DNA of 64,000 nucleotides. Source: Hyphomicrobiales bacterium (GTDB lineage: Bacteria > Pseudomonadota > Alphaproteobacteria > Rhizobiales > MH13). Shown one piece after another: positions 51,294 to 64,000 of this stretch. Within the stretch, counting starts at the first letter, position 1. Every line of letters begins with the position of its first letter. The translations under genes were made by a program, and so were the position numbers. A model generated the notes under the pieces. The model saw only the letters and a program-made list of their open reading frames with translations, did no database searches and was not told where the DNA came from. The stretch spans positions 382,708 to 446,707 of the forward strand of contig JAVJSN010000015.1 of assembly GCA_040219355.1 (NCBI GenBank), given 5' to 3'.

Positions 51294-52052
51294 ATGAACC
51301 ATTCTTTGCCACAGGCGTCGTTTCGTACGCGCTGTGATCAGTGTTCCATTCATAACAGAGCCATATGCAGCCGTGCGTCATCTGCGGCGGCGCAAGAACT
51401 GCAGAATCTTAGCCGTATCCGCCGGTTTTCCGCCGGTCAGGTGATCATCGCGGAGCATACTGAGAGCCTGTTCATGGGCAATGTGGTTACGGGGATGGTC
51501 AAGCTGTGCAAAACGCTTGAAGACGGTCGGCAGCAAGTTGTCGGGCTTCTGTTCCCCTCTGATTTTTTTGGCCGCCCGTTTGAAGAACAGTCACCTTTTT
51601 CTTTTGAGGCGGCGACCGACGTTGAGATTTGCGTTTTCGAGCGCCAAGCCTTTGAGGCTCTGCTCGCACGCTTTCCGGAAGTCGAGCATGAGTTGCTGGT
51701 TCAGGTGTTGACCGAGCTAGACGCGGCGCGTGAGTGGATGGTGCTGCTTGGCTGTCAAACCGCCCGCGAGAAGGTGGCAAGTTTTCTGCTGATGCTGTTG
51801 CGCAGATCTGGTCTTATGGGCTGCGATAAAGCCGATACTCCCGAGGCGCGCATTGTTACAGTTCCTGTGAGCCGGAAGGATGTGGCGCTCTATCTCGGCA
51901 CGACACCAGAGACTGTTTCGCGGCAAATTCAGTGGATGTCGCGCAATGAAATTGTGCGCATTATCGACAGTCAAACCTTCGCGGTTCTTAGTCCACAAAG
52001 GTTGGCGCACGCCGCTTCGCGCGAAGAATGGCTGGATGAGCTTAGCGCTTAG
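51294..52052 (+). CDS. Crp/Fnr family regulator, FnrL/FnrN type with Fe-S cysteines
   Basis: N-terminal C-x2-C-x7-C (CDQCSIHNRAIC) plus the central EICVF Cys; GRQQVVGLLFPSDF; ELDAAREWMVLLG; recognition helix TPETVSR. Confidence 0.88.
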   Translation: MNHSLPQASFRTRCDQCSIHNRAICSRASSAAAQELQNLSRIRRFSAGQVIIAEHTESLFMGNVVTGMVKLCKTLEDGRQQVVGLLFPSDFFGRPFEEQSPFSFEAATDVEICVFERQAFEALLARFPEVEHELLVQVLTELDAAREWMVLLGCQTAREKVASFLLMLLRRSGLMGCDKADTPEARIVTVPVSRKDVALYLGTTPETVSRQIQWMSRNEIVRIIDSQTFAVLSPQRLAHAASREEWLDELSA

Positions 52053-52074
52053 CTGATCCAGCCTTCTGCCTTGG

Positions 52075-54459
52075 TTATCTGGCCGATTTTTCTGCCTCAG
52101 CGACATTCGCTTTGACCGCCAGAAAGCTGTCCGGCGTGACCGATATGCTGTCGATCTTCGCTTCGACCAAAAACTTGGCGAACGTTGGGTCGTTGCTCGG
52201 TGCCTGACCGCACAGGCCAACTTTGGCGCCGGACTTATGGGCGCGTTCAATCACAGTCTCGATCATCCATTTGACAGCTGGATTCTGTTCTTCAAAGACG
52301 CCGGACAGATGCTCGTTGTCGCGATCCACGCCAAGCGTTAGTTGGGTCAAATCGTTGGATCCAATAGAGAAACCTGAGAAGCGTTTGGCAAATTCTTCGG
52401 CCAGAATAACGTTGGATGGCACCTCGCACATCACATAGATATCAAGGCCGTTCCTACCGCTTTCCAGGCCGTTTTTCGCCATCACATCAAGCACCAGATC
52501 GGCTTCTTGTGGTGTGCGGCAGAATGGGATCATGACCAATACGTTGGTGAAACCAAGGTCATCACGTAGGTGGCGGATCGCCTGACATTCCAGGGCAAAA
52601 CCATCGCGATAGATGTCGGCATAATAGCGCGATGCGCCGCGCAGCCCGATCATCGGGTTTTCCTCGTCCGGCTCAAACGCGGAGCCGCCAAGCAGCTTGG
52701 CGTATTCGTTGGTTTTGAAGTCGCTCATCCGCACTATCGCCGGGTTGGGATGAGCAACAGCGGCGATGCGCGAAAGGCCTCGGGCCAGCGTTTCCACGAA
52801 ATAGTGCTTCTTGTCGTCGTAGCCGCGTGTCAGCGCCTCGATTTCTTGCTTGTCGTGGACATCATGCAGTTTGTCGAAATTGACCAAGGCCATCGGGTGC
52901 ACTTGCACGGCGGAATTCACCACAAACTCCATGCGGGCCAGGCCAACGCCGTCTGATGGCAAGCGCCACCAGCGGAACGCCGAGGCTGGGTTGGCCAAGT
53001 TCAGCATGATTTTCGTTTTGGTGTCGGGCACATGGTCGAGCTTGATGTCTTCGACGTCAAAATCGAGATAGCCCTGATATATATCGCCTTGCTCACCACC
53101 GGCGCATGAGACCGTCACTTTCTGCCGGTCATGCAAAACATGGGTGGCATCGCCCGTGCCGACGATGGCCGGGATGCCCAATTCGCGGCTAACGATGGCG
53201 GCGTGAGATGTGCGCCCGCCATGGTCGGTGATGATGGCTGCGGCCCGCTTCATAATGGGCACCCAGTCGGGATCGGTTGTTGAGGTGACCAGGACAGACC
53301 CATCAACAAACTGCTCAATGTCTTGGGCGCTTTCAATGATGCAGATCGGCCCTTGTGTGACCGCGTTGCCGACGCTCAAGCCGCTCAAGATCGGCTTATC
53401 CTTGGTGTTGAGCGTGAAGTTTTTCATCACGTGATGGTCGGCGCGCGATTGCACGGTTTCTGGCCGTGCCTGGACGATGTAGAGCTCGCCAGTCTCCCCA
53501 TCCTTGGCCCATTCCATATCCATCGGTTGGCCGTAATGCTTCTCGATGGTTGCGGCCTGACGCGCCAGGGCGACGATTTCTTCGTCGCTCAAGACAAAGC
53601 TCTGCTGCTCGCGTCTAGAGGTTGGAACATTGATCGTCTCGCCGCCTTCTTGGCCGGCATAGATCATCTTTTGCTCTTTTTCGCCCAGGCGCTTCTCAAC
53701 GATTGGGCTAAGGGATTTGTCATCAAGGAACGGCTTAAACACCTGATATTCATCTGGGTTTACGGCGCCTTGCACGACGTTCTCGCCAAGGCCCCATGCG
53801 GCGTTGATGAGAACGACTTTGTCGAAACCTGTTTCGGTGTCGATGGAGAACATCACGCCTGAGCCGCCAATGTCAGAGCGGACCATGAGTTGAACCCCGA
53901 CCGAGAGGGCGACCTTCTTATGGTCAAAACCTTTCATAGTGCGGTACATGATGGCGCGATCCGTGAAGAGCGAAGCGTAGCACCGACGACAGGTGGCAAG
54001 CAGCGCCTCGGCACCGCGAACATTCAAGAAAGTCTCCTGCTGGCCGGCAAAGCTGGCATCGGGCAAGTCTTCTGCGGTGGCGCTGGAGCGCACAGCAACG
54101 GACAGGTCGTCAGCGCCGGTGCGTTTCTTAAGTTCATCAAACTGAGCGACGATGTCATCGCGCAAATCCTGCGGCCAATCGCCGGCGACGAAAGCCTTGC
54201 GGATGTGCTTGCCAGCTTCCTGAAGCGTCATCTGTTTGCTGGCCAACTGTCGCAGTGTTTCGTCCAACACGCTATCCAGGCCATTGTGCTTGACGAAACC
54301 TCGGAAGGCGTCAGAAGTGGTGGCAAAACCAGGTGGCACCTTGATGCCCGCGCTCCCCAACTGCTGCACCATTTCGCCAAGTGAAGAGTTCTTGCCGCCG
54401 ACAAGGCTAACGTCGCCACGCGAGAGTGTGTCAAACCATATGATGTTTTGCGTGCTCAT
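52075..54459 (-). CDS. ppsA: Phosphoenolpyruvate synthase
   Basis: VGGKNSSLGEM, VRSSATAED, FAGQQET, QARPETV, GGRTSHAAI (phospho-His), RMSDFKTNEY, IGSNDLTQL, CGQAPS. Confidence 0.96.
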   Translation of the reverse strand: MSTQNIIWFDTLSRGDVSLVGGKNSSLGEMVQQLGSAGIKVPPGFATTSDAFRGFVKHNGLDSVLDETLRQLASKQMTLQEAGKHIRKAFVAGDWPQDLRDDIVAQFDELKKRTGADDLSVAVRSSATAEDLPDASFAGQQETFLNVRGAEALLATCRRCYASLFTDRAIMYRTMKGFDHKKVALSVGVQLMVRSDIGGSGVMFSIDTETGFDKVVLINAAWGLGENVVQGAVNPDEYQVFKPFLDDKSLSPIVEKRLGEKEQKMIYAGQEGGETINVPTSRREQQSFVLSDEEIVALARQAATIEKHYGQPMDMEWAKDGETGELYIVQARPETVQSRADHHVMKNFTLNTKDKPILSGLSVGNAVTQGPICIIESAQDIEQFVDGSVLVTSTTDPDWVPIMKRAAAIITDHGGRTSHAAIVSRELGIPAIVGTGDATHVLHDRQKVTVSCAGGEQGDIYQGYLDFDVEDIKLDHVPDTKTKIMLNLANPASAFRWWRLPSDGVGLARMEFVVNSAVQVHPMALVNFDKLHDVHDKQEIEALTRGYDDKKHYFVETLARGLSRIAAVAHPNPAIVRMSDFKTNEYAKLLGGSAFEPDEENPMIGLRGASRYYADIYRDGFALECQAIRHLRDDLGFTNVLVMIPFCRTPQEADLVLDVMAKNGLESGRNGLDIYVMCEVPSNVILAEEFAKRFSGFSIGSNDLTQLTLGVDRDNEHLSGVFEEQNPAVKWMIETVIERAHKSGAKVGLCGQAPSNDPTFAKFLVEAKIDSISVTPDSFLAVKANVAEAEKSAR

Positions 54460-54536
54460 GGTGTTTCCTCTTGGTCGCTGATTTCAGCAGTTGGAGCTTC
54501 AAGGGCATTTGTATGGGTCGGTCTGGCGCGACGGCT

Positions 54537-54950
54537 TCATCCCCACTGACTGGCAAGTGCGCGCAGGGCGTCTGTGCGGCTGAGCTGCCCGACAAGCTTG
54601 CCGCCATCCATTACGGGAAAGCGGCGAAAGGGTTTTTCAATGAATAGATTTGTCGCGCTGATGACATCCATGCTTGCTTCAATGGTCGCCACCGGATGGC
54701 TCATATAGGCCTCAACGCGCCCGCCCCAGTCGCGGTAATAGCTGGCATCCAGAGCGGCTTTCAGGCAGTCGCGCTTTGTTAAAACGCCAATGAGAAATCC
54801 TTCAGAGTCGAGCACTGGTGCGCCAGATATCCGCCGATCGAGCAGAATGTTCATCGCACGGTTGATTTCCATGTCCGGTGTCAGCGTCACCAGATCTTTG
54901 GACATGAAGTCGGCAACCAAGGGCAGGGAGTCCGTGGTTCTGGCGCTCAT
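54537..54950 (-). CDS. Stand-alone tandem CBS-domain protein
   Basis: VADFMS, ISGAPVLD, GVLTKRD, RRFPVMD.GKLVGQLSRTD. The start overlaps the nqrM stop (ATGA). Confidence 0.9.
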   Translation of the reverse strand: MSARTTDSLPLVADFMSKDLVTLTPDMEINRAMNILLDRRISGAPVLDSEGFLIGVLTKRDCLKAALDASYYRDWGGRVEAYMSHPVATIEASMDVISATNLFIEKPFRRFPVMDGGKLVGQLSRTDALRALASQWG

Positions 54951-55120
54951 GGCTCTCGCTCCAGCATTTTTTTGTTGGGGCAGGTGGCACACTCAATGTT
55001 TTTCAGGCAGGCCACACCGCCACATGATCCTTCAATCGGTTTGCGCCCAGCCATAACGCCGACTGCCAAACCTGCGATTGCTAGGGCAAAAATCGTCAAT
55101 GCGAACAGGAAGATCACCAT
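54947..55120 (-). CDS. nqrM: Na+-NQR maturation factor NqrM (DUF539), 57 aa, absent from the ORF track
   Basis: Hand-translated as MVIFLFALTIFALAIAGLAVGVMAGRKPIEGSCGGVACLKNIECATCPNKKMLEREP: one TM helix, GRKPIxGSCGG and 4 Cys. AGGAGG RBS; directly downstream of apbE. Confidence 0.9.
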   Translation of the reverse strand: MVIFLFALTIFALAIAGLAVGVMAGRKPIEGSCGGVACLKNIECATCPNKKMLEREP

Positions 55121-55126
55121 CGCCTC

Positions 55127-56101
55127 CTAGGCCACGACATGGTCGGAGAAGCTGCCGGTCATGGTTTCGTCCAATCCATTGTCGGTGCGTGTCAGGAAAA
55201 GAGCTGAGACGGCCAGCTCAGATGCACATTGAATGCCGCGTTGCGGTCCAAGGACCATGAGTGCGGTAGCCAGTGCATCGGCGCGTATGGCCGTCGGTGC
55301 GAGAACTGAAACCGCAGCAAGGCTATTGTCTGTTGGGCGTAGATCGCTGGGGTCGATAAGATGACTGAGCGCCACACGGCCGCGATAGCCGTTCGCGCTG
55401 TGACCGGAGCTTGCCAGTGCCAGGTGTCCTGGTGCGATGATGCGGTGAGCGGTTACCTGTGGTGTGCCCGGCTGTTCGATAGCGACCTGCCAAGGACGAC
55501 CCATAGGGTGCTCGCCGATGGCAGAGACTTCTCCGCCAAGCTCAATCAGCGCGCTTGTCACACCTGCGCGGTGTAGCAAGTCTGCAATCTCATCTAAGGC
55601 ATGCCCTTTGGCGATCCCACAGAGGTCAAGCGTTAGGTCATGATGGGCTTTGCGAACCGCTCCATTCTCAACAATGATTGCTTTGTAGGAGCCGGAACCA
55701 CCGTTAATCGGGCCAAACCCAAAGCGAGCAACGGCTGGCCCGACGGTTGGATCAAAGGCGCCGCTGGTGATCTCGGCAACAGCAAGGCTTTCGGCAACAA
55801 CGTGGCAGACATCGCTGGGTAGAGGTTGCCATGCGGTGGTAGCGTTGCGATTGAACCGCGAAATGTCGGAGTCGTTGCGCCAGGGGGACATTTGCTCATC
55901 GACCCGCTGGATGATCGCTTCGACAGGAGGTCGAAGCAGGCGTTCATCCAAGGTGGCCCCGCCTGCTATGCGCCATGTGCTTGCAAAAGCACGACCGCCG
56001 AAGGAGACGGTTGCTGCCTCAGCCTGTGAAGCAAAACCAAGCCCAAAAGCAGCGGTCCATGCCGCGCCGCCTGCCACAAAACTGCGCCGTGTCACGGGCA
56101 T
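55127..56101 (-). CDS. apbE: FAD:protein FMN transferase
   Basis: Twin-Arg signal (TRRSF), SDISRFN, GAFDPTVGP, LDLCGIAKGH, ELGGE, LASSG, HLIDP, ADALATAL. Confidence 0.93.
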   Translation of the reverse strand: MPVTRRSFVAGGAAWTAAFGLGFASQAEAATVSFGGRAFASTWRIAGGATLDERLLRPPVEAIIQRVDEQMSPWRNDSDISRFNRNATTAWQPLPSDVCHVVAESLAVAEITSGAFDPTVGPAVARFGFGPINGGSGSYKAIIVENGAVRKAHHDLTLDLCGIAKGHALDEIADLLHRAGVTSALIELGGEVSAIGEHPMGRPWQVAIEQPGTPQVTAHRIIAPGHLALASSGHSANGYRGRVALSHLIDPSDLRPTDNSLAAVSVLAPTAIRADALATALMVLGPQRGIQCASELAVSALFLTRTDNGLDETMTGSFSDHVVA

Positions 56102-56103
56102 CG

Positions 56104-57324
56104 CTACACTCCGAAATCGTCGTTGAAGATGTGGTCGCGATCGACACCCAGATCGTCCAGCATCTGAAAAACAGCGCGGATCATCAGCGGTGGACCACAG
56201 AGATAGTATTCGCAGTCTTCAGGCGCAGGGTGGTCGCGCAGGTAGGTCTCCAGCGCCACCTGATGAACGAAGCCAACGGCGCCTTGCCAATCATCTTCTG
56301 GCTGCGGATCGGAGAGCGCGACTGTCCAGTCGAAGGTGTCGTGCTCGGCTGCAAGTGCATCCAACTCATCGACGTAAAGCAATTCGGCCTTGCTACGTGC
56401 GCCATACCAGAAAGTCATGCGACGCCCGCTTTTCGTAATGCCCAGCTGCTCATGGATGAGGGCGCGTAGTGGCGCCATGCCGACCCCACCGCCGATGAAC
56501 ACCATTTCCTTGCCGGTCGGTTGCGCACGGAAGCTGCCGAAGGGACCGGATGTTGTGACCTCCTGGCCCGGCTTGAGAGCAAACAACCAAGACGACACGA
56601 TACCGGGTTGTACTTGCGGTTCGGAGGGCGGTGGCAGGGCAAGGCGAATGTTCAACACCACACGGCGGGCTGCTGTGTCTTCGGGTCGGTTGGAGATGGA
56701 GTAAGCGCGGGTAACGTCCTCTTCGCTTTGAACCGATAGGGATCGCAAAGAGCGCCATGCGTCCTTATGGCCGTCGGGCGTGTCAATTGTCGCGTAATCA
56801 AGCGTGTAAGGCGGTGCGGTGACCTGAACATAAGAGCCGGCAACAATGCTAGCATCGACATCATCAGGCAATTGCAGCACGATTTCGCGGATAAGCGGGG
56901 TAAGTGCGGTAACCGAATGTACCGTGCATGTGTAGCTGGTCGCGCCCACCCACTCTTGCGGGGCCTCGACAGCCATATCGTCGCGCAGGGTAACCTGGCA
57001 GGCCAGATGCACACCGTCTCGGCGATCAGCGTTGGAAAGCTGCGCAATTTCAACTGGTAGGTGAGATTGATCCTCGCCGACCACCGTGATCCGGCACAGT
57101 CCGCACGTGCCTGCGCCAGCGCAGGCCGAGGGCACCAGCACATCATGATCATGCAAAGCAGCGAGCAGTTTTTGCCCGGTTTTGACGTGGAACTCGGTTG
57201 AGCCATTGACCGTCAGGACTGCTGGCCCCGAGGGCATCAAAACGCCACGGGCGATCATCACCATGGCGGTCAAAACCAGAACGACGCAGACGATCAGCAC
57301 TGTGCCAAAGAGGATGACGCTCAT
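56104..57324 (-). CDS. nqrF: Na+-NQR subunit F (2Fe-2S, FAD, NADH-binding)
   Basis: N-terminal [14 protein letters not shown]...[32 protein letters not shown]. Confidence 0.93.
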
Positions 57325-57920
57325 AGGCCCACCCCGGCAAATGCAGAAAAGCCGAGCGACATAAGGCCGGTAACAATGAAGGCGATCCCTAGGCCCTGAA
57401 GACCAGCGGGAATGTTGGCGTATTTCAAGCGCTCACGGATTGCAGCAAAGGCGATAATTGCTAGGGCCCAGCCGAAGCCGCTGCCAAACCCGTAGACGAT
57501 GGACTCGCCAAAATCGTACTGACGCTCGACCATAAACAGACTGCCGCCAAGGATCGCGCAGTTGACTGTGATCAGCGGCAGAAACACGCCAAGCGCGTTG
57601 TAAAGAACCGGCACATACCGATCCAGCGTCATCTCCAGCACCTGCACGAAGGCGGCAATAACGCCGATGAATGCGATCAATTTGAGATAGGTGAGGTCCA
57701 TCTCGGGCAGCCCGAGAAAGCCCCAAGCACCTTCGACCAGCAGGCCGTTGAAGATGAGATTGTTGAGAGGAACCGTCAGCGTTTGGACGGCAACGACCGC
57801 AATGCCCAGGCCAACGGCGGTTTCAAAGCGTTCTGAAACGGCCAGGAAGGTACAGACACCCAAAAAGAAGGAGAGCGCCAAGTTCTCTTGGAAGATCGCT
57901 GCGAGAAGAAGGTCGCTCAT
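57321..57920 (-). CDS. nqrE: Na+-NQR subunit E
   Basis: [40 protein letters not shown]. Confidence 0.93.
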
Positions 57921-58582
57921 GAACGTCCCCCGGCAGATTTCAGCGAAGGGTGCAATTTGAACTTCGGCGCTTCGATCTGCGCGGTCCAGCGCGTGCGGAT
58001 GACCCAGATAAGCAGGCCAATGATGAAGAACGCGGCTGGTGCCAGCTGCATCAGGCCAAGCGGTTCAAACCATCCGCCATCGGCAACGGTGACGAAGACG
58101 GTCTGGCCAAATAGTGTGCCCGCTCCAAGAAGTTCACGGATGCCGCCCACAAGCATAAGAATGAGGCTGTAGCCGAGCCCATTGCCGAGCCCATCCAACA
58201 CCGATGGGCCTACTGGATTGCGCATCGCGAAGGCTTCCGCTCGGCCGAGCACGAGGCAATTGGTGACAATGAGGCCGACAAACACCGAGAGCTGTTGGCT
58301 GATCTCAAAGGCAAAGGCTTGCATCAGCTCGTCAATTACGATCACCAGCGATGCGATGATGGTGATCTGAATGATCAGTCTAATGCTGGTGGGAATGTGG
58401 TGACGTATCAGGCTGATGATCGCCGATGACATGCAAAGCACGGCGGTCAGCGCGACCGACATCATGGCGGCTGTTGTCAGCGAGGTTGTAACCGCCAAAG
58501 CCGAGCAGATGCCTAGGATTTGGAGTGTGACAGGGTTTTCCTTCACCAGCGGCGTGGTGAGATGGTGGGCCCAGCGCGCCAT
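57917..58582 (-). CDS. nqrD: Na+-NQR subunit D
   Basis: [53 protein letters not shown]. Confidence 0.93.
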
Positions 58583-59374
58583 CTACAGTCCCTCCTCGGC
58601 AAGGCGATCAAGGAAGGGGCCAAAGCCATTTGGGCCCATCCAAAAGTGCAGGGCAAACGTGACACCATCGCCGGTGCGGGTGGCACCGGAAAGGCCGTCG
58701 ACTTCATGCACGCTCTGCGCCTGGCCACGAACGACCTCGATGACAATGTCGCCCTCCTCATTCAGAAGCTCTTTGCCTGGCCAGAGGCTTTGCCAGTCCG
58801 GTTCTGTGATACGAGCACCAAGCCCAGGCGTTTCTGCCTGTTCGGTGATGGTCAGCGCTGCGACCGTGGAAAGGTCTGGTTCCAGGGCCAACATAGCGCG
58901 GATGGTCGACGCGTAGCCGCTGCCATAAACTGGCAGAACAATGAGCAGCAGATCGCCATCGCGTTCCAGCAGGTGGACGGGTGCATAGAGCGGACGCCGT
59001 CGGATGCTCGCCAGATCATCGTCTGTAGGGATAGCAACCGATAGCTCTGGATCAGTCGCGGCGGCCACAAAATCGTATGTGGCCGGATCAATGTCTGGTG
59101 CGAATTGACCGGTTTGCAGATCAACAATGCGCGTTTCTAACGCTGTCACGCCGGCTTCTTCCATGACCTGACGCATGCCTGGAAGCGTGTCGAGCATGGA
59201 TTCCATGCGGGCGGCTTGCTCAGCGTCAATTTGGGCTTGCTGAATAGGGCCGAGCAAAACCGAGGCGGTGGAGACGAGGATCGCGCAGACAAAGGCCACC
59301 AGTGCCGCGATAGTGACTGTTTTGGTCGTGTCGTCGTTGGGCCGGGCAAACAGAGCGCTGACAGGATTAGGCAT
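58583..59374 (-). CDS. nqrC: Na+-NQR subunit C (covalent FMN)
   Basis: N-terminal TM (ALVAFVCAILVS), PVYGSG, ETPGLG, and the flavinylation motif DGLSGAT. Confidence 0.92.
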   Translation of the reverse strand: MPNPVSALFARPNDDTTKTVTIAALVAFVCAILVSTASVLLGPIQQAQIDAEQAARMESMLDTLPGMRQVMEEAGVTALETRIVDLQTGQFAPDIDPATYDFVAAATDPELSVAIPTDDDLASIRRRPLYAPVHLLERDGDLLLIVLPVYGSGYASTIRAMLALEPDLSTVAALTITEQAETPGLGARITEPDWQSLWPGKELLNEEGDIVIEVVRGQAQSVHEVDGLSGATRTGDGVTFALHFWMGPNGFGPFLDRLAEEGL

Positions 59375-60245
59375 CGTGCTTCTCCGCGTCGCGTTTCTCT
59401 CCAAAGCGTTTTTTCCAGTGTGCCTCTCTGCGGCTTTCCCGGACATAGGCGTTAGTGAGCACGGCAAGATGATCGAGCAGCGGGGCAAAGATGCTTGCCA
59501 AAAGCGCTGCAAAAACAAGGGCTTCAGCCTTTAAATCAGCCGTCGCGAAACCTGAGAAAACAGCGATAAGGAACCCTGCCAACGCGCCATAGGCCCAGCG
59601 ACCGGGATTGGTGCAGGCCGCGCCTAATGGGTCGGCAATGAGGAACACCAAGCCAACGGAAAGAGCGATGGCGAGTGTTTGCATTAATCCAAATTCGCCA
59701 AGTAGTGCCATCGCAGCTGCGGTTATTACCAGGGTTGCGACCAAGACACGCCAGGAGATCAAGCCGGCGAGCAGAAGCAGGATTGCACTAGGAATGGCGG
59801 CCAGCGCGACCGTTACGTCGACGGACTGCAAGGCTAGCTGAGGGAAGGAAAAGACCAAAAGAGCGAGCGTGGCAGCTGCCGGGTTCACAAATCCAAAGCC
59901 GCGTCCACCAAATACCAGTTCGCCCAAAACAACGCCCAGCGAGACCGCGACGGCCAATTGCCAAGTTTCAACGCCCAGTGGCACAAACAGCGTGATAAGC
60001 ATGGCCGTTGTAAGTCCGTGTAAGGACATATCGGCGTGGCGCAAAAAAGCGAAAAGGTTCTCCCAAGCCAGCGCAACCACAAGGCAGGTTAAGAACACCG
60101 GAACAAGCAGTGGCCCTCTGTTGGCAAAATCCATGGCCAGAGGAAATGCCAAAGCTGCGGCCTGTAGCAGGCTCACGCGTCCAGCGCTGAAGAGGAAAGG
60201 CAGCAGTGCCGCCGATTGAACGGTTGGGCGTTGAAAACTGGCCAT
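59367..60245 (-). CDS. nqrB: Short NqrB/RnfD-family subunit (292 aa) lacking the FMN-carrying loop
   Basis: WENLF, GELVFGGRGFGFVNP, SWR, ADP, T..GRWAYG, FAPLLDH, at the nqrB position between nqrA and nqrC. No SGAT motif. Confidence 0.82.
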   Translation of the reverse strand: MASFQRPTVQSAALLPFLFSAGRVSLLQAAALAFPLAMDFANRGPLLVPVFLTCLVVALAWENLFAFLRHADMSLHGLTTAMLITLFVPLGVETWQLAVAVSLGVVLGELVFGGRGFGFVNPAAATLALLVFSFPQLALQSVDVTVALAAIPSAILLLLAGLISWRVLVATLVITAAAMALLGEFGLMQTLAIALSVGLVFLIADPLGAACTNPGRWAYGALAGFLIAVFSGFATADLKAEALVFAALLASIFAPLLDHLAVLTNAYVRESRREAHWKKRFGEKRDAEKHDA

Positions 60246-61570
60246 CAGGCGGCGTCCTCGGCCAACTCATCGAGCACTGAGCGCAGCAAAACACAGTAGT
60301 CGGCACCGCTTGTGCAGATCATGTTCAATGCCGCGACATCTTCTTCGACCAGATCTAATGCACCGAGTTGCTTGGCCGCCTGCGCGTCGCCGACGCTTAG
60401 TGCGCGCATCATCGGCACTGCCAGCACATCGGCGGGGAGGGCGCGATCCATCACGATGTTTGGGATGAGTGACGCGGTGGAGTTGGAACCGAAGAAAGGC
60501 AGGCGCGATGTCCAAGATGGGCGTAGCCCGCGCTTTCGATTTGAAAGGACGCTCACTTGGCTGTGATAGCGGCCAAGATAGCTGAGCTCGCGACCGGTAA
60601 CCGCCGACCCCGACAAGGTGCGGGTGCTGCCATGGTTGGCGGCTTGTGGTTTTAATTCACCTTCGATGAGGCCGCGCAGGCTTGCGCCGAGTTTTGTCGT
60701 CAGAAGACGTGGATTTGTTAGCTGTTCACCGCTTAGCGCAATCACCCTTGTGGCATCGTACCGCCCGGTTAAAAACAAGGTTCCGATGGCTATCACGTCC
60801 TGATACCCGATGCTCCACACGGGCAGATCTGGTGAAGCGGGTGAAAGTCGATGGATGTGCGTCGACGCCAAGCCCGCTTGATAACTACCACCAAAACGGG
60901 CTGTTCTGATTTTCAGGGTGTCAGGCGCTTGGAAGCTGCTCGCCTTATGTTGGCAGACAAAAACCTGCCCATCCGTGAGCTTGGCCAACACTTCAAGGCC
61001 GTGGCGAAAAGCATCCGCATTGTCGGCGATCACAGGGTCGGGATTGGCAGCACCTGGAGATAGATCAATGGCTGACACGAAGATGGCGACTGGGTTCTGG
61101 GCAGATGGCGGTATCAGTCCGAAGGGGCGTGATCGGAAAGATGGCCAAAGCCCGCGCGACAAAAGGACGTTGCGAACGTGCTGACGCGATGGCGCATTGA
61201 TGGCAACCGGTTCAGCGGAGGATTGGCTTTTCTCGTCCTTCCCGTCTTGATGACTGGCTTGGGCGCGGACCACGATTGCCGACAAGGTTCGTCGTGGTCC
61301 GTAGTCGATGGAAAACACACGTCCGCTGATGGGTGAGGCGAAGCAAATCGCGTCATCCTTGCGATCAACAAAAAGAGTTTGCCCTTCGTCCACCTGCTCG
61401 CCGACATCGACCAGAAAGCGTGGGCGCATGCCCGGATAATCCGTCCCAAGTAGAGCAGCCGCAGCGACGGACACGGATTGATCAATCACTTGCGATGGCG
61501 CACCAGGCGCGGAAAACCGAAGACCGTTTCGCAAAGAGACGGGCTTCAACGGTTTGCGTTCAAACGACAT
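60245..61570 (-). CDS. nqrA: Na+-NQR subunit A (divergent)
   Basis: DYPGMRP, GQTLFVDRK, FASPISG, GPRR, GLWPSFRSRPF, YQDVIAIG, YLGRYH.Q, LVEEDVA. Confidence 0.9.
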   Translation of the reverse strand: MSFERKPLKPVSLRNGLRFSAPGAPSQVIDQSVSVAAAALLGTDYPGMRPRFLVDVGEQVDEGQTLFVDRKDDAICFASPISGRVFSIDYGPRRTLSAIVVRAQASHQDGKDEKSQSSAEPVAINAPSRQHVRNVLLSRGLWPSFRSRPFGLIPPSAQNPVAIFVSAIDLSPGAANPDPVIADNADAFRHGLEVLAKLTDGQVFVCQHKASSFQAPDTLKIRTARFGGSYQAGLASTHIHRLSPASPDLPVWSIGYQDVIAIGTLFLTGRYDATRVIALSGEQLTNPRLLTTKLGASLRGLIEGELKPQAANHGSTRTLSGSAVTGRELSYLGRYHSQVSVLSNRKRGLRPSWTSRLPFFGSNSTASLIPNIVMDRALPADVLAVPMMRALSVGDAQAAKQLGALDLVEEDVAALNMICTSGADYCVLLRSVLDELAEDAA

Positions 61571-61636
61571 CTAGAGAAGAGGAAGAAAGGTTGATTGGGG
61601 CACAACTAACCTTCCTGCATCACGCTTTGGGGTTCA

Positions 61637-61650
61637 TTGACCGGCGTCAA
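61637..61650. promoter_or_regulatory. FNR/FixK-type box TTGAC-N4-GTCAA between the divergent nqrA and cytochrome c genes
   Basis: TTGACCGGCGTCAA is a perfect 14-bp palindrome, one base per half-site away from TTGAT-N4-ATCAA. An Fnr gene lies in the same block. Confidence 0.72.
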
Positions 61651-61725
61651 TGCCTTGGTGGAACGACAAGCTATGACCAAGGGAGCCAGATGGCCTTTCG
61701 CTCCAACCGGACAGGATCGACTTCC

Positions 61726-62847
61726 ATGTGCTTGCCAAAGCTGCGTCTGCCCAAAATCTTCGTTGTTTCCGTTTTGACGGCCTTGATCGGGCTGCCGATC
61801 AGCCACGCTGCGGCGCAAGACGATGCGGGAGAGACCGCGATTCTTCAGCTACAAGGTATTGTCGAGGCCTGGCTGTCTTCACCGCATGCTGACATTACCA
61901 GCCAAGCCTTTCATCACTGGGATGAAGATGGCGAAATTCCCGCTACATGCGCGACCTGCCACACGAGTTTCGGTTTCATTGAATATGTGCGTGGCGCCAT
62001 GGACCAGGCAGGCATTGCGCCGCAAGCCATGCCAACAGGTGGCGTCGTTGATTGCGCAGCTTGCCACAGTGAGGCATCCACCGCGCTTGTGAGCGTTCCT
62101 TTTCCATCGGGTGTGAGTGTTGATACGTTCGGCAGCTCTGCCACCTGCGCCGTTTGTCACCAGGGGCGTGCGGCGGGTTCAACCGTCGCTGCTGCAAGTG
62201 AAGGCATGGATGAGGACACCGTGTCGGAAGACCTCGGTTTTATCAATGTGCACTACGCGCCATCGGCTGCAACGCTGATGGGATCGGTCACGTCCGGCGG
62301 ATTTGAGTATGAAGGCCGTGAGTATCGCGGTCAGTTTACGCACGTGCCTGATTTTGCGACCTGCACCAGTTGTCACCAGCCGCATAGCTTGGAACCAGTT
62401 GCAATGGAGACCTGCGCGACTTGTCACCAAGAGGCCGAAACGTTTGAAGACATTCGCACCACCCGTATCGATGTGGATGGCGATGGTGATATGTCTGAAG
62501 GCATTGCCGACCCGATCCACACCCTGCACGAGCGTCTCTATGCGGCCATTCAAGCCTACGGCACGGATGTTGCGGGCACGGCGATCATCTATGCCGATCA
62601 GTTTCCTTATTTCTTCACCGATACCGATGGCGATGGCGCTGTTAGCGAAGGCGAAGCGGCTTTCCCCAACCGGTATGCGTCGTGGACGCCGCGCCTGTTG
62701 AAGGCAGCCTACAATTACCAGTTCATCGCCAAAGATCATGGGGCGTTCGCACACAATCCGCACTATGCACTCCAGCTCCTTTATGACAGCCTGGAGGATC
62801 TTAGCGGACAGGTTGACGTGGACATGGCTGCGATGGCGCGCCCGTAA
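61726..62847 (+). CDS. Periplasmic pentaheme cytochrome c (alternative start at 61690)
   Basis: Sec signal (..HAAA/QD), five CxxCH motifs (CATCH, CAACH, CAVCH, CTSCH, CATCH), two DxDGDG loops, C-terminal GAFAHNPHY. Confidence 0.92.
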   Translation: MCLPKLRLPKIFVVSVLTALIGLPISHAAAQDDAGETAILQLQGIVEAWLSSPHADITSQAFHHWDEDGEIPATCATCHTSFGFIEYVRGAMDQAGIAPQAMPTGGVVDCAACHSEASTALVSVPFPSGVSVDTFGSSATCAVCHQGRAAGSTVAAASEGMDEDTVSEDLGFINVHYAPSAATLMGSVTSGGFEYEGREYRGQFTHVPDFATCTSCHQPHSLEPVAMETCATCHQEAETFEDIRTTRIDVDGDGDMSEGIADPIHTLHERLYAAIQAYGTDVAGTAIIYADQFPYFFTDTDGDGAVSEGEAAFPNRYASWTPRLLKAAYNYQFIAKDHGAFAHNPHYALQLLYDSLEDLSGQVDVDMAAMARP

Positions 62848-62888
62848 GTTTGGCCTTTCAGTCGATATCAAGCCACGTGGGCGTCTGA

Positions 62889-64000
62889 ATGGAAGACGCC
62901 CACTCTCATGCCCTTGTGCTGGTCGCCATTGGTGTCCTGTTTCTAGGCGGGTTGGCACTTGATGCTTTTGGCCGGATTGTCCATGTTCCGCGTGTAACGC
63001 TGCTCATGCTTCTTGGTGCTTTGCTGGGACCGCCCGTTTTGGACGTGCTTCCAAACGCGATCGCTGGCGGCAATCCGATCTACACTGATCTTGCGCTGAC
63101 AATGGTTGCCTTTCTGCTCGGCAGCTCGCTAAGCCGCCAGACCTTGGCGGCCCACGGTCGCGAAATTCTTGTCGTTTCGATCATCGTCGTGTTGGTTTCC
63201 ATCACGCTGGTGGCAGGTGGGCTCTACCTTCTGGGCGTGCCGCTGCCCATCGCGCTGTTGCTGGGTGGGATATCGGCGGCCACCGCACCTGCTGCGACGC
63301 ACGATGTCATCCGGCAATCTGGCAAGACGGGTAAGTTCGTTACCAACTTGACCGGCATCGTGGCCATTGACGATGCATGGGGGCTGCTTGCTTTTAGCGT
63401 GCTTTTAACACTGGCTGCGCTTCTGGTTGGTAATGGCGCTGATGGTGGCGCCTTGTTCCAGGCTTTTTATGAAGCTTTTGGTGGCATTGCCTTGGGATTG
63501 GCGATTGGTCTGCCCGCCGCTTTCCTCACAGGTCGTTTGAAGCCAGGCGAACCTTCGCTTGTTGAGGCGATTGGCGTGGTGATGCTGTGCACCGGTCTTT
63601 CGCTTTATTTTGAAGTCTCGTTCCTTTTGACGGGCATGGTGTGCGGTGCGGTGATTGTGAACTTTGCCCGCCACCATGAACGGCCGTTTCACGAAATCGA
63701 ACGCATCGAATGGCCTTTTCTTTTGCTGTTTTTTGTCATGGCCGGTGCGTCGCTGCACGTGGAAGCGTTGATGGCGCTTGGCGTTGCTGGTGTGGGCTAT
63801 TGTGTGCTGCGATTTGGTGCGCGCCTTGTCGGTGGATGGCTTGGTGGGCGTGCATCGGGGCTGTCGTCGCAAGAAGGCGTTTTAACAGGTATGGCACTGA
63901 TGCCCCAGGCCGGGGTGGCCATCGGCATGGCGTTGGTTGCCAGCGATCACTTTCCGCAATACCGCGAAACGTTGGTGACGATCACGATTGCCAGCACGAT
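62889..64000 (+). CDS. Cation:proton antiporter (CPA, Na_H_Exchanger family), 3' end outside the window; absent from the ORF track
   Basis: Hand-translated as MEDAHSHALVLVAIGVLFLGGLALD...SAATAPAAT...IVAIDDAWG...PQAGVAIGMAL. The frame is open to the window end. Confidence 0.88.
   Translation, partial: MEDAHSHALVLVAIGVLFLGGLALDAFGRIVHVPRVTLLMLLGALLGPPVLDVLPNAIAGGNPIYTDLALTMVAFLLGSSLSRQTLAAHGREILVVSIIVVLVSITLVAGGLYLLGVPLPIALLLGGISAATAPAATHDVIRQSGKTGKFVTNLTGIVAIDDAWGLLAFSVLLTLAALLVGNGADGGALFQAFYEAFGGIALGLAIGLPAAFLTGRLKPGEPSLVEAIGVVMLCTGLSLYFEVSFLLTGMVCGAVIVNFARHHERPFHEIERIEWPFLLLFFVMAGASLHVEALMALGVAGVGYCVLRFGARLVGGWLGGRASGLSSQEGVLTGMALMPQAGVAIGMALVASDHFPQYRETLVTITIAST

Follow-up and report, generated by a model that had tools for sequence, protein, structure and literature searches.

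A conserved NQR variant with a shortened NqrB, genetically tied to a multihaem cytochrome c, as a candidate exporter of electrons from NADH to the periplasm

NAD(P)H transmembrane reductases of the NOX/FRE type are assumed to transfer electrons in the outward direction alone. [quoted passage not shown] 2021; PMC11334425). Canonical NqrB has an FMN site and a quinone/inhibitor pocket (PMC9325719, PMC10643135), and these are the very parts that are absent from the NqrB encoded in the window analysed here, the whole 64 kb stretch of DNA. A conserved NQR variant in which the parts for quinone reduction are lost and whose genes are linked to that of an exported five-haem cytochrome has apparently not been described before, and no published account of a cytochrome-linked NQR with a short NqrB was found in the literature. 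We propose, with a probability of roughly 0.6, that this module is a low-O2-induced exporter that passes electrons from NADH to a periplasmic cytochrome.

The NQR genes form a block of nine genes on the minus strand (nqrA-B-C-D-E-F-apbE-nqrM-CBS, positions 54537-61570), whose junctions are either overlaps of 1-8 nt or spacers of 0-6 nt. Gene calls and junction lengths thus bear out the tightly packed order described in the original prediction. The operon starts with nqrA (60245-61570), which encodes the cofactor-free cytoplasmic subunit with NQRA_N, NQRA_2nd and NQRA_SLBB domains and scores 296 bits against TIGR01936, under the cut-off of 321. Downstream of the remaining subunit genes are apbE (55127-56101; PF02424, 213 bits), encoding an FAD:protein FMN transferase with a Tat/Sec-type leader that would flavinylate NqrC, and nqrM (54947-55120; 57 aa), the gene of an NQR maturation factor, which is conserved in position and matches PF04400 with 23.4 bits against a cut-off of 22. 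The last gene (54537-54950) codes for a CBS-pair protein with two PF00571 domains. It was found in those short-NqrB loci whose sequence covers the end of the operon, every gamma-type locus has it too, and it is kept across the wider clade of CBS-linked NQRs.

On the plus strand, a Na_H_Exchanger (CPA1-like) antiporter gene (62889-64000, truncated by the window end; PF00999, 101 bits) lies on one side of the module and recurs beside it in Hoeflea, in loci L042, L047 and L052 and in the gamma-type loci. The other side holds an FnrL-like Crp/Fnr regulator gene (51294-52052, plus strand), whose product has cNMP_binding and HTH_Crp_2 domains and an N-terminal C-x2-C-x7-C motif and reaches 229 bits against the FnrL model NF045989, under its cut-off of 300. 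An Fnr and a cation:H+ antiporter had been described as flanking the block. The regulator gene is not adjacent to the operon, from which it is separated by the overlooked phosphoenolpyruvate synthase gene ppsA (52075-54459, minus strand; NF005057, 1122 bits). ppsA does not belong to the conserved module and is missing next to it in Hoeflea and Yoonia. Flanking of the module by both fnrL and ppsA is confined to the source genus, and fnrL synteny was seen only in loci L003-L006 and L029.

The electron-input half of the complex is intact, as all cofactor ligands of NqrC, D, E and F are present in the alignments. NqrF (56104-57324, minus strand; TIGR01941, 441 bits against a cut-off of 295), the NADH/FAD/2Fe-2S input subunit, is fully canonical and keeps its Cys ligands, the RAYS motif and the NAD motif GGGxGMAP when aligned to the V. 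cholerae chain 8a1t_F. NqrD (57917-58582, minus strand; NF006777, 300 bits) and NqrE (57321-57920, minus strand; TIGR01940, 290 bits) are 60-70% identical to their V. cholerae counterparts and keep Cys29 and Cys112 (7xk3_D) and Cys26 and Cys120 (7xk3_E), respectively. In the periplasmic FMN subunit NqrC (58583-59374, minus strand; TIGR01938, 172 bits against a cut-off of 144), the SGAT flavinylation threonine is retained within DGLSGATRT, which aligns to V. cholerae Thr225. These V. cholerae alignments agree with the motifs that had been read as intact in NqrF, NqrD/E and NqrC.

The output half, judged by alignment, is dismantled, with both the FMN site and the quinone/inhibitor pocket of NqrB gone. 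The nqrB gene (59367-60245, minus strand) encodes only 292 aa, compared to 415 aa in V. cholerae, and scores 119 bits against NF003756 (cut-off 414). Its residues 47-136 align to V. cholerae 129-218, and the next ~45 (44) residues, which contain Thr236, are absent; the alignment thus skips the segment holding the attachment threonine, in line with the FMN loop having been reported missing. Altogether ~80 residues are lacking from the N-terminus and the TM1-2 loop combined. Gly140/141 are replaced by Ala-Leu and Glu157 by Leu, and at the riboflavin ligands Asn200 and Asn203 the short-NqrB clade shows no conservation. Loss of the quinone/inhibitor pocket was unforeseen by the original prediction and adds to its support. 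Thr162, Asp346 and Asp397 are retained, some residues are invariant clade-wide, and an AlphaFold2 model (pLDDT 87.7; TM-score 0.67-0.70 to NqrB) confidently predicts that the short protein still folds as the 10-helix NqrB/RnfD core. When NQRs of equal NqrD/E divergence are compared, the variant shows lower conservation of NqrB and higher conservation of NqrC than canonical NQR, and NqrA diverges fast within the short-NqrB clade.

Divergently from the operon, the window encodes an exported pentahaem cytochrome c, here called cyt5 (61690-62847, alternative start 61726, plus strand), with a Sec-type signal peptide and CxxCH motifs for all five haems. No other cytochrome of the source genome has three or more haems. 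Seven more His residues are invariant in the family, whose members also share two DGDGD loops and a conserved C-terminal domain without haem; in the short-NqrB clade, the signal peptide is cleavable and a membrane anchor is absent. In profile comparison, cyt5 did not reach the cut-off of any named cytochrome family, Rnf-associated ones included, and structure prediction of cyt5 gave no confident model. Where the family occurs without NQR, a gene with Ferric_reduct, FAD_binding_8 and NAD_binding_1 domains adjoins it in 6/7 contexts; this pairing with NOX/FRE-type reductases had not been foreseen either and likewise favours the original prediction.

Short NqrB and cyt5 were found in the identical eight of 61 related genomes, adjacent every time, and in a second order all four genomes with a short NqrB also carried cyt5. 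Matching NQR-cytochrome arrangements are present in Hoeflea phototrophica and Yoonia maricola. Across the dataset, a multihaem cytochrome gene was detected at 27/31 short-NqrB loci and at 1/17 long-NqrB loci, counts that come from loci of one clade and are not independent events, because short NqrB arose once and forms a single monophyletic clade spanning several alphaproteobacterial orders, so that a Fisher test on them ignores phylogeny. On two long contigs with short NqrB (L053 and L074), no multihaem gene was found within 6.6 kb. The cytochrome itself varies, having 4, 5, 6 or 11 haems: alternative neighbours are c3-type tetrahaem, hexahaem and 11-haem cytochromes, and some loci have a Tat-exported FAD_binding_2 reductase together with a c3-type cytochrome instead. 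Partner swapping goes both ways, as the NQR variant occurs with other cytochromes and the cyt5 family with another reductase. In a sister gammaproteobacterial clade, the NqrB attachment threonine has also been lost (Thr to Asp), Gly140/141 and Glu157 are kept, no cytochrome adjoins NQR, and cyt5 was not found anywhere in two genomes. The NqrB FMN was therefore lost before the link to the cytochrome arose, and such a loss can occur without it.

The two divergent units have in common an FNR/FixK-type palindrome, TTGACCGGCGTCAA (61637-61650), and gene calls uphold the divergent arrangement around it that had been claimed. It is the sole TTGA-N6-TCAA in the window. Since one such site per window is also the chance expectation, its significance rests on conservation across loci: an FNR-type box is present in 24/24 non-identical divergent cytochrome-nqrA intergenic regions, in which the surrounding sequence has diverged, compared to 1/24 control regions upstream of nqrA in long-NqrB loci. 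Owing to this common box, induction of the module at low O2 is predicted, and the FnrL-like protein is a candidate O2 sensor that would bind TTGACCGGCGTCAA.

With gene content, residue losses and the conservation of linkage and box observed directly, we infer from gene linkage and residue loss that electrons probably take the following outward route under O2 regulation. The remodelled NQR would oxidise cytoplasmic NADH and use the exported pentahaem cytochrome c as electron acceptor in place of ubiquinone. Electrons would pass from NADH to FAD and 2Fe-2S in NqrF, to the 2Fe-2S centre of NqrD/E, to the covalent FMN of periplasmic NqrC, which would be the exit point, and from there to the cytochrome haems. 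The cytochrome may hand them on to whichever periplasmic acceptor the host has available, with the cbb3 oxidase or the dihaem peroxidase as candidates in the source genome and the Tat-exported fumarate-reductase-type flavoenzyme as a candidate at related loci. The canonical return path from NqrB FMN via riboflavin to ubiquinone would be disabled, because the NqrB FMN loop and quinone pocket are lost, and NqrA and NqrB would stay as a scaffold; Na+ pumping may continue. Both units would be switched on at low O2 through the common box, while complex I would cover ordinary NADH:quinone work. NuoD was present in 17/17 genomes tested, and the NQR variant is therefore not needed for NADH:quinone activity. 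The low-O2 conduit from NADH to a periplasmic cytochrome that had originally been suggested is thus supported by the co-occurrence across genomes (8/61, 4/4 and 27/31), its own proposed test, and by the conserved boxes.

It appears rather unlikely that the complex still works as an NADH:quinone oxidoreductase in which the NqrC FMN docks at the old NqrB-FMN site and reduces a non-covalent NqrB flavin and then quinone at a remodelled site, while the cytochrome, though co-regulated at low O2, serves another function. Short NqrB could still bind a non-covalent flavin, given Thr162, Asp346, Asp397 and the confidently modelled core, and NqrC FMN could substitute for the lost NqrB FMN by analogy with the two-subunit, likewise threonine-free Nqr/Rnf-like systems, for which similar docking was proposed from AlphaFold models. 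Retention of NqrA fits such activity, as does the gammaproteobacterial sister clade, which lacks the threonine and an adjacent cytochrome and keeps Gly140/141 and Glu157. However, Gly141 has become Leu in the short form, and any other residue at this position is stated to interfere sterically at the ubiquinone site (PMC10643135). Glu157 and the entire N-terminal pocket are absent as well, the riboflavin ligands vary within the clade, and quinone reduction leaves unexplained why cytochrome families interchange at one spot and why cyt5 pairs with NOX/FRE-type reductases.

A relay, in which the cytochrome carries electrons from NqrC FMN to quinone or another membrane carrier, in the way proposed for MmcA between Rnf and methanophenazine, we regard as improbable. 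The multihaem cytochrome subunit of M. acetivorans Rnf is thought to feed methanophenazine or external acceptors, and Chloroflexi homologues of cyt5 adjoin NrfD/4Fe-4S quinone-interacting modules, but genes for NrfD, NapC/NirT and cytochrome b are unlinked to the module in all alphaproteobacterial loci examined, and cyt5 of the short-NqrB clade is anchorless. Uphill, Na+-gradient-driven reduction of NAD+ to NADH by periplasmic donors via the cytochrome is highly improbable: in principle, RNF and NQR machines can also run backwards, and a cation exchanger gene repeatedly adjoins the module, but the hosts are heterotrophs with complex I, the alternative reductase partner of the cytochrome is taken as outward-only, and FNR-type control is easier to reconcile with getting rid of reducing power than with generating it. 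Finally, both NqrA and NqrB fall short of the curated cut-offs of their families and evolve more rapidly than the remaining subunits, as might be expected of a decaying operon with a degraded NqrB beside a chance neighbour. This reading is effectively excluded by the conservation data, as none of the ten genes is disrupted and their coupling is tight, several orders share the arrangement at 35-50% identity, and NqrB has clade-wide invariant residues and a confident fold.

The export module resembles canonical NQR in its six subunits in identical order with apbE and nqrM, in all cofactor ligands of NqrC, D, E and F and in the NqrB membrane fold. It differs in that NqrB lacks the Thr236-bearing FMN loop and the quinone/inhibitor region at the N-terminus, together with Gly140/141 and the acidic residues Asp52, Glu157 and Glu273, which have been proposed to line the Na+ path, and in the addition of the CBS-pair gene, the divergent multihaem cytochrome gene and the FNR-type box. 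In the two-subunit systems, by contrast, an NqrB-like domain is fused to an NAD-binding domain and accompanied by an NqrC-like protein, whereas NqrA, D, E and F are absent. The NOX/FRE-type reductases, as alternative neighbours of the cyt5 family, are presumably equivalent electron donors, but these single polypeptides with b-type haems are unrelated to NQR and not known as ion pumps. The closest analogy is Rnf-MmcA of Methanosarcina acetivorans, although that system is archaeal, receives electrons from ferredoxin through RnfB, has mmcA within the rnf operon whereas cyt5 is divergent, and reportedly has conserved RnfD cofactor sites. The likeness is one of genetic context: in both cases, the genes of an RNF/NQR-family machine are linked to that of a multihaem c-type cytochrome, which accepts, or in our module would accept, electrons at the outer face of the membrane.

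Family scans of the ORFs listed for the window recognized all six NqrA–NqrF products, encoded in one operon on the minus strand. The matches of nqrD (57917–58582), nqrE (57321–57920) and nqrF (56104–57324) were above the curated cut-offs and that of nqrC (58583–59374) exceeded one such cut-off (172 vs 144), while nqrA (60245–61570; 296 vs 321) and nqrB (59367–60245; 119 vs 414) scored below theirs. The operon continues on the same strand with apbE (55127–56101), nqrM (54947–55120; PF04400, 23.4 bits vs a cut-off of 22) and a CBS-pair gene (54537–54950), and neighboring genes either overlap by 1–8 nt or are separated by no more than 6 nt, in agreement with the tight block described in the original prediction. 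The pentaheme cytochrome gene (61690–62847, alternative start at 61726; hereafter cyt5), which encodes five CxxCH motifs and a Sec-type signal peptide, is indeed transcribed divergently from nqrA, and is followed by a Na_H_Exchanger gene that runs past the window end. The exchanger thus flanks the module as proposed, but the FnrL-like regulator (51294–52052, plus strand; 229 bits vs an equivalog cut-off of 300) does not adjoin it, as ppsA (52075–54459, minus strand; 1122 bits), which had been overlooked, lies between. The proximity of fnrL to the module is conserved within this genus only. The same is true for the linkage of ppsA, which has the same orientation as the CBS-pair gene, starts after a gap of 77 nt, and may be transcribed by read-through from the nqr operon. 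No second NqrB/RnfD homologue was found elsewhere in the genome. Complex I is present in the host and in 17 of 17 related genomes tested.

The state of each subunit was read from alignments to the Vibrio cholerae chains. NqrF retains all 2Fe-2S cysteines, the FAD motif RAYS and the NAD motif (vs 8a1t_F, residues 1–405, E = 1e-121). NqrD and NqrE share 60–70% identity with their V. cholerae counterparts, and Cys29/Cys112 of NqrD and Cys26/Cys120 of NqrE, which ligate the intramembrane 2Fe-2S cluster (PMC9325719), all align. The flavinylation site of NqrC is retained as well (DGLSGATRT vs DGLSGATLT, with Thr225 in SGAT), and covalent FMN on NqrC is predicted from this threonine. The alignments thereby substantiate the earlier reading of all these motifs as intact.

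NqrB differs profoundly. It has 292 aa vs 415 aa in V. cholerae and is missing approximately 40 N-terminal residues and the TM1–2 loop of approximately 43 residues (together about 80 residues), a further loop of 11 residues, and the entire 44-residue loop with the DGYSGAT motif, including the FMN attachment site Thr236. An [ST]GA[ST] motif was found neither in this NqrB nor in that of any other short-NqrB locus, confirming that the FMN loop is missing as originally noted. In addition, Gly140-Gly141 is replaced by Ala-Leu and Glu157 by Leu. According to cryo-EM studies (PMC9325719, PMC10643135), the ubiquinone/inhibitor pocket is built from the N-terminal stretch, Gly141 and the Glu157 region, riboflavin is held by Thr162, Asn200, Asn203 and Asp346, and the strictly conserved acidic residues Asp52, Glu157 and Glu273 belong to a proposed Na+ path. 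All three acidic residues are missing from the NqrB of the window. This protein retains Thr162, Asn203, Asp346 and Asp397 and has Gly in place of Asn200; both asparagine positions vary within the clade. An AlphaFold2 model based on 19 homologues (pLDDT 87.7) superposes on V. cholerae NqrB (TM-score 0.67–0.70, probability 1.0) and also on RnfD. Because this model is confident and superposes on both proteins, we rejected a decayed nqrB gene as an explanation; as modeled, short NqrB is a membrane core that has been trimmed but is intact. When loci of equal NqrD/E divergence are compared with canonical NQR, conservation is ~15 points lower for NqrB and ~8 points higher for NqrC. This shift would fit a new interface of NqrC and a loosened constraint on NqrB, but is only suggestive.

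A protein search with short NqrB retrieved 154 clusters, the best 120 of which span 194–297 aa; named sources include Sulfitobacter, Yoonia, Paracoccaceae and Hoeflea phototrophica DFL-43. In a tree of concatenated NqrD, NqrE and NqrF from 57 loci, in which the type of three loci was taken from the locus scan instead of the automatic label, all short-NqrB loci formed one clade (SH-aLRT 99). The sister clade is gammaproteobacterial and has its genes in the order nqrABCDEF-CBS; its MAG loci L009–L015 (for example L010:8601–14653) have no adjacent apbE or nqrM and no cytochrome nearby. In their NqrB, the periplasmic loop is present, but GYAGSD stands in place of the canonical GY[ST]GAT, so that aspartate replaces the attachment threonine, and Asn200 and Asn203 are both replaced by Ser. 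Since this sister clade has the loop with an aspartate at the site, the threonine appears to have been lost before the loop was deleted. A shifted flavinylation serine might exist in the gammaproteobacterial NqrB, although the motif is a misfit.

The distribution of short NqrB closely follows that of the cytochrome. Among 61 relatives, cyt5 and short NqrB occur in exactly the same eight genomes, always as a divergent pair separated by about 1.4 kb. The canonical long NqrB occurs without cyt5 in four genomes of this genus. No genome among the 61 has both NqrB types, and the variant and canonical NQR look mutually exclusive within the genus. Its genomes G000–G015 include seven with the variant NQR plus cyt5, four with long NqrB, five with neither and none with both. 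An even sample of 400 genomes from the class was sparse and yielded one extra match; therefore, locus scans and a second order were used instead. In this second order (31 genomes), cyt5 is present in four of four short-NqrB genomes, convergent and downstream of the CBS gene. The arrangement of the ten genes in Hoeflea and Yoonia is identical to that in the window. After genome and metagenome loci had been pooled and duplicates removed, with negatives scored only where at least 1.5 kb upstream of nqrA was available, a gene with at least three CxxCH motifs was found at 27 of 31 short-NqrB loci vs 1 of 17 long-NqrB loci (Fisher p = 3e-8, uncorrected for phylogeny and with a single origin of the short clade). 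The proposed co-occurrence of short NqrB is thus observed with cyt5 among the 61 relatives and with a multiheme cytochrome across the pooled loci. In one genome that lacks short NqrB, a fragment of a cyt5 homologue (G488:C1:565263–565487) is interrupted by a TAA stop and is probably a pseudogene remnant.

The associated cytochrome is not always cyt5. Three loci (L008, L044, L058) encode a c3-type tetraheme protein of 120–160 aa and one (L049) an 11-heme protein instead, and two short-NqrB loci on long contigs (L053, L074) have no cytochrome within 6.6 kb. At L042 (3100–5356) and L063 (3664–5545), a Tat-exported FAD_binding_2 reductase of the fumarate-reductase type accompanies a c3-type hexaheme or tetraheme protein, and the same reductase type occurs at the contig edge of L038 (137–1684) and L070. 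These loci belong to one sub-clade, whose module may therefore have a specific terminal reductase in the periplasm. The pair of FAD_binding_2 reductase and c3-type cytochrome at L063 and L042 resembles a split flavocytochrome c. At a further locus, an NrfB-like hexaheme cytochrome gene (L075:815–1477) precedes nqrA by 30 nt in the same orientation; the operon is CBS-linked and encodes a long NqrB with GYDQPT at the FMN site. Here, an NQR seems to have become linked to a cytochrome a second time and independently.

The divergent units share a palindrome, TTGACCGGCGTCAA (61637–61650), in the 119-nt region between cyt5 and nqrA, 67 nt from the nqrA start. It matches the relaxed FNR/FixK form TTGA-N6-TCAA used as search pattern and was not picked up with the strict pattern TTGAT-N4-ATCAA. 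An exact TTGA-N6-TCAA lies between cyt5 and nqrA at all 24 non-identical divergent loci, among which the central six bases and the surrounding sequence vary; the chance expectation is about 0.004 per 250 nt. Short-NqrB loci without a divergent cytochrome have no such box upstream of nqrA, and it was present in 1 of 24 control regions from long-type, gammaproteobacterial and canonical loci. The host genome also has an exact box at a hemN-like gene and two boxes with one mismatch each at ccoN. The shared FNR-type palindrome noted earlier is thus conserved, which is good comparative evidence for FNR/FixK-type control; the FnrL-like protein is a candidate for the regulator that would bind it.

Neither Pfam nor NCBIfam places cyt5 in an informative family, and its relatives carry the NCBI name "polyheme membrane-associated cytochrome C". 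An alignment of 17 homologues revealed that the five CxxCH motifs and seven further His residues are invariant, along with two DGDGD loops and a conserved non-heme C-terminal domain. The family comprises 813 representative clusters (E below 1e-10), has no curated name, and includes many proteins of 600–1300 aa, mostly chloroflexal, in which the module is repeated in tandem two to four times. Two chloroflexal decaheme proteins (L112:7001–8992, L113:7001–9019) consist of two tandem pentaheme modules and are encoded beside NrfD/4Fe-4S/multiheme modules and a cytochrome b module. A sequence search of cyt5 against the PDB gave no meaningful match. The AlphaFold2 model has a mean pLDDT of 55 with a disordered heme region, and Foldseek with this low-confidence model returned no match below E = 1.

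Away from nqr, single-module cyt5 homologues were surveyed in seven contexts. In six, the homologue is directly beside a gene for a NOX/FRE-type reductase (Ferric_reduct + FAD_binding_8 + NAD_binding_1), in divergent or tandem orientation (L109:7370–10077, L114:4401–7092, L115:836–3290, L117:3390–6095, with Ferric_reduct and NAD_binding_1 in the partner, L118:319–2415 and L119:5001–7586); L116 is the exception. The alphaproteobacterial pair L109 is divergent, and an FNR-type box precedes its cytochrome start by 66 nt. In the order of genome G188, the specific NOX/FRE gene was found only once, and its 35–40% paralogues are unlinked to the cytochrome; the pairing therefore rests on independent metagenome contexts. 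NOX/FRE-type proteins oxidize NAD(P)H in the cytoplasm and pass the electrons through the membrane, and the two genes look like an apparently undescribed NAD(P)H-to-periplasm module. cyt5 thus has two alternative, unrelated partners that both oxidize cytoplasmic NAD(P)H and can deliver electrons outward; no other single observation argues as strongly that electrons flow outward to the cytochrome.

Our leading hypothesis, to which we assign a probability of about 0.6, is that electrons pass from NADH via NqrF, NqrD/E and the FMN on NqrC to cyt5 and on to a periplasmic acceptor, and that this path would be switched on at low O2. The original prediction of an NADH-to-periplasmic-cytochrome conduit thus remains the best supported reading, backed by the genomic linkage, the losses in NqrB and the NOX/FRE-type partners of cyt5. 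The main rival explanation is that the enzyme has remained a quinone reductase, with the FMN of NqrC standing in for the flavin that NqrB has lost. It is kept plausible by the retention of Thr162 and Asp346 in NqrB and by the gammaproteobacterial clade, which has lost the threonine and has no cytochrome, while the altered quinone pocket and the linkage to cyt5 speak for electron delivery to the cytochrome. Two other readings are that electrons enter NQR via the cytochrome in reverse or that the cytochrome is an unrelated neighbor of nqr; the recurrence of cyt5 beside a second, unrelated type of NAD(P)H-oxidizing, outward-delivering enzyme counts against both.

If electrons do flow from NADH to cyt5, possible sinks in the host are its cbb3 oxidase and a probable, unannotated diheme peroxidase; cyt5 is the only cytochrome with at least three hemes in this genome. 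More tentatively, and in our estimate somewhat short of an even chance, the RNF/NQR machines could include a third functional class, represented by this locus: an NADH:cytochrome c oxidoreductase that may still be Na+-motive and that supplies periplasmic acceptors under hypoxia, bypassing the quinone pool and bc1, with the widespread pentaheme family as a general periplasmic receiver for NAD(P)H-driven electron exporters of the NQR-variant or NOX/FRE type. As regards possible Na+ pumping, the lost acidic residues of NqrB and the 60–70% identity of NqrD and NqrE are joined by a cation exchanger gene that recurs beside the module, as Na_H_Exchanger in this genus, in Hoeflea, at L042, L047 and L052 and in the gammaproteobacterial clade, where it is conserved 2.4 kb upstream of the operon, and as Na_Ca_ex at L063 and L070.

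NQR is the textbook quinone reductase and an antibiotic target, and whether its Na+ pumping site resides in NqrB or NqrD/E is still debated. A clade that keeps the half from NADH to the FMN of NqrC and drops the half from the FMN of NqrB via riboflavin to quinone would mean that the machine is modular, and would provide a natural experiment on which half pumps Na+. Marine alphaproteobacteria that are common (roseobacter-group genera, Hoeflea and a Cohaesibacter-related genus) would then have an additional path by which NADH electrons reach the periplasm without quinone, which would bear on redox balance at low O2. The clade would also offer a first clue to the function of a large uncharacterized family of multiheme cytochromes and of bacterial NOX/FRE-type reductases. 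Since carriers such as Hoeflea phototrophica DFL-43, Yoonia maricola and Limimaricola soesokkakensis are in culture, the idea is directly testable.

By gene content, the locus is an NQR. Nevertheless, it lacks two defining features of Na+-NQR, the FMN of NqrB and the quinone pocket. It differs from RNF in having NqrF and NqrA in place of RnfB and RnfC with their 4Fe-4S clusters, and the RnfC-like score at the locus is only 25 bits. Nor is it the two-subunit NQR/RNF-like system (Meheust et al.), which consists only of an NqrB-like domain fused to a PF00175 NAD-binding domain and an NqrC-like partner, whereas here NqrB is a separate protein of 292 aa and all six NQR subunits are present. Full-text searches of an incomplete body of literature turned up no paper on an NQR that is linked to a cytochrome or whose NqrB lacks the FMN site. 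The nearest functional precedent is Rnf with MmcA of Methanosarcina acetivorans, in which, unlike in the NqrB described here, the cofactor sites of RnfD are reported to be conserved.
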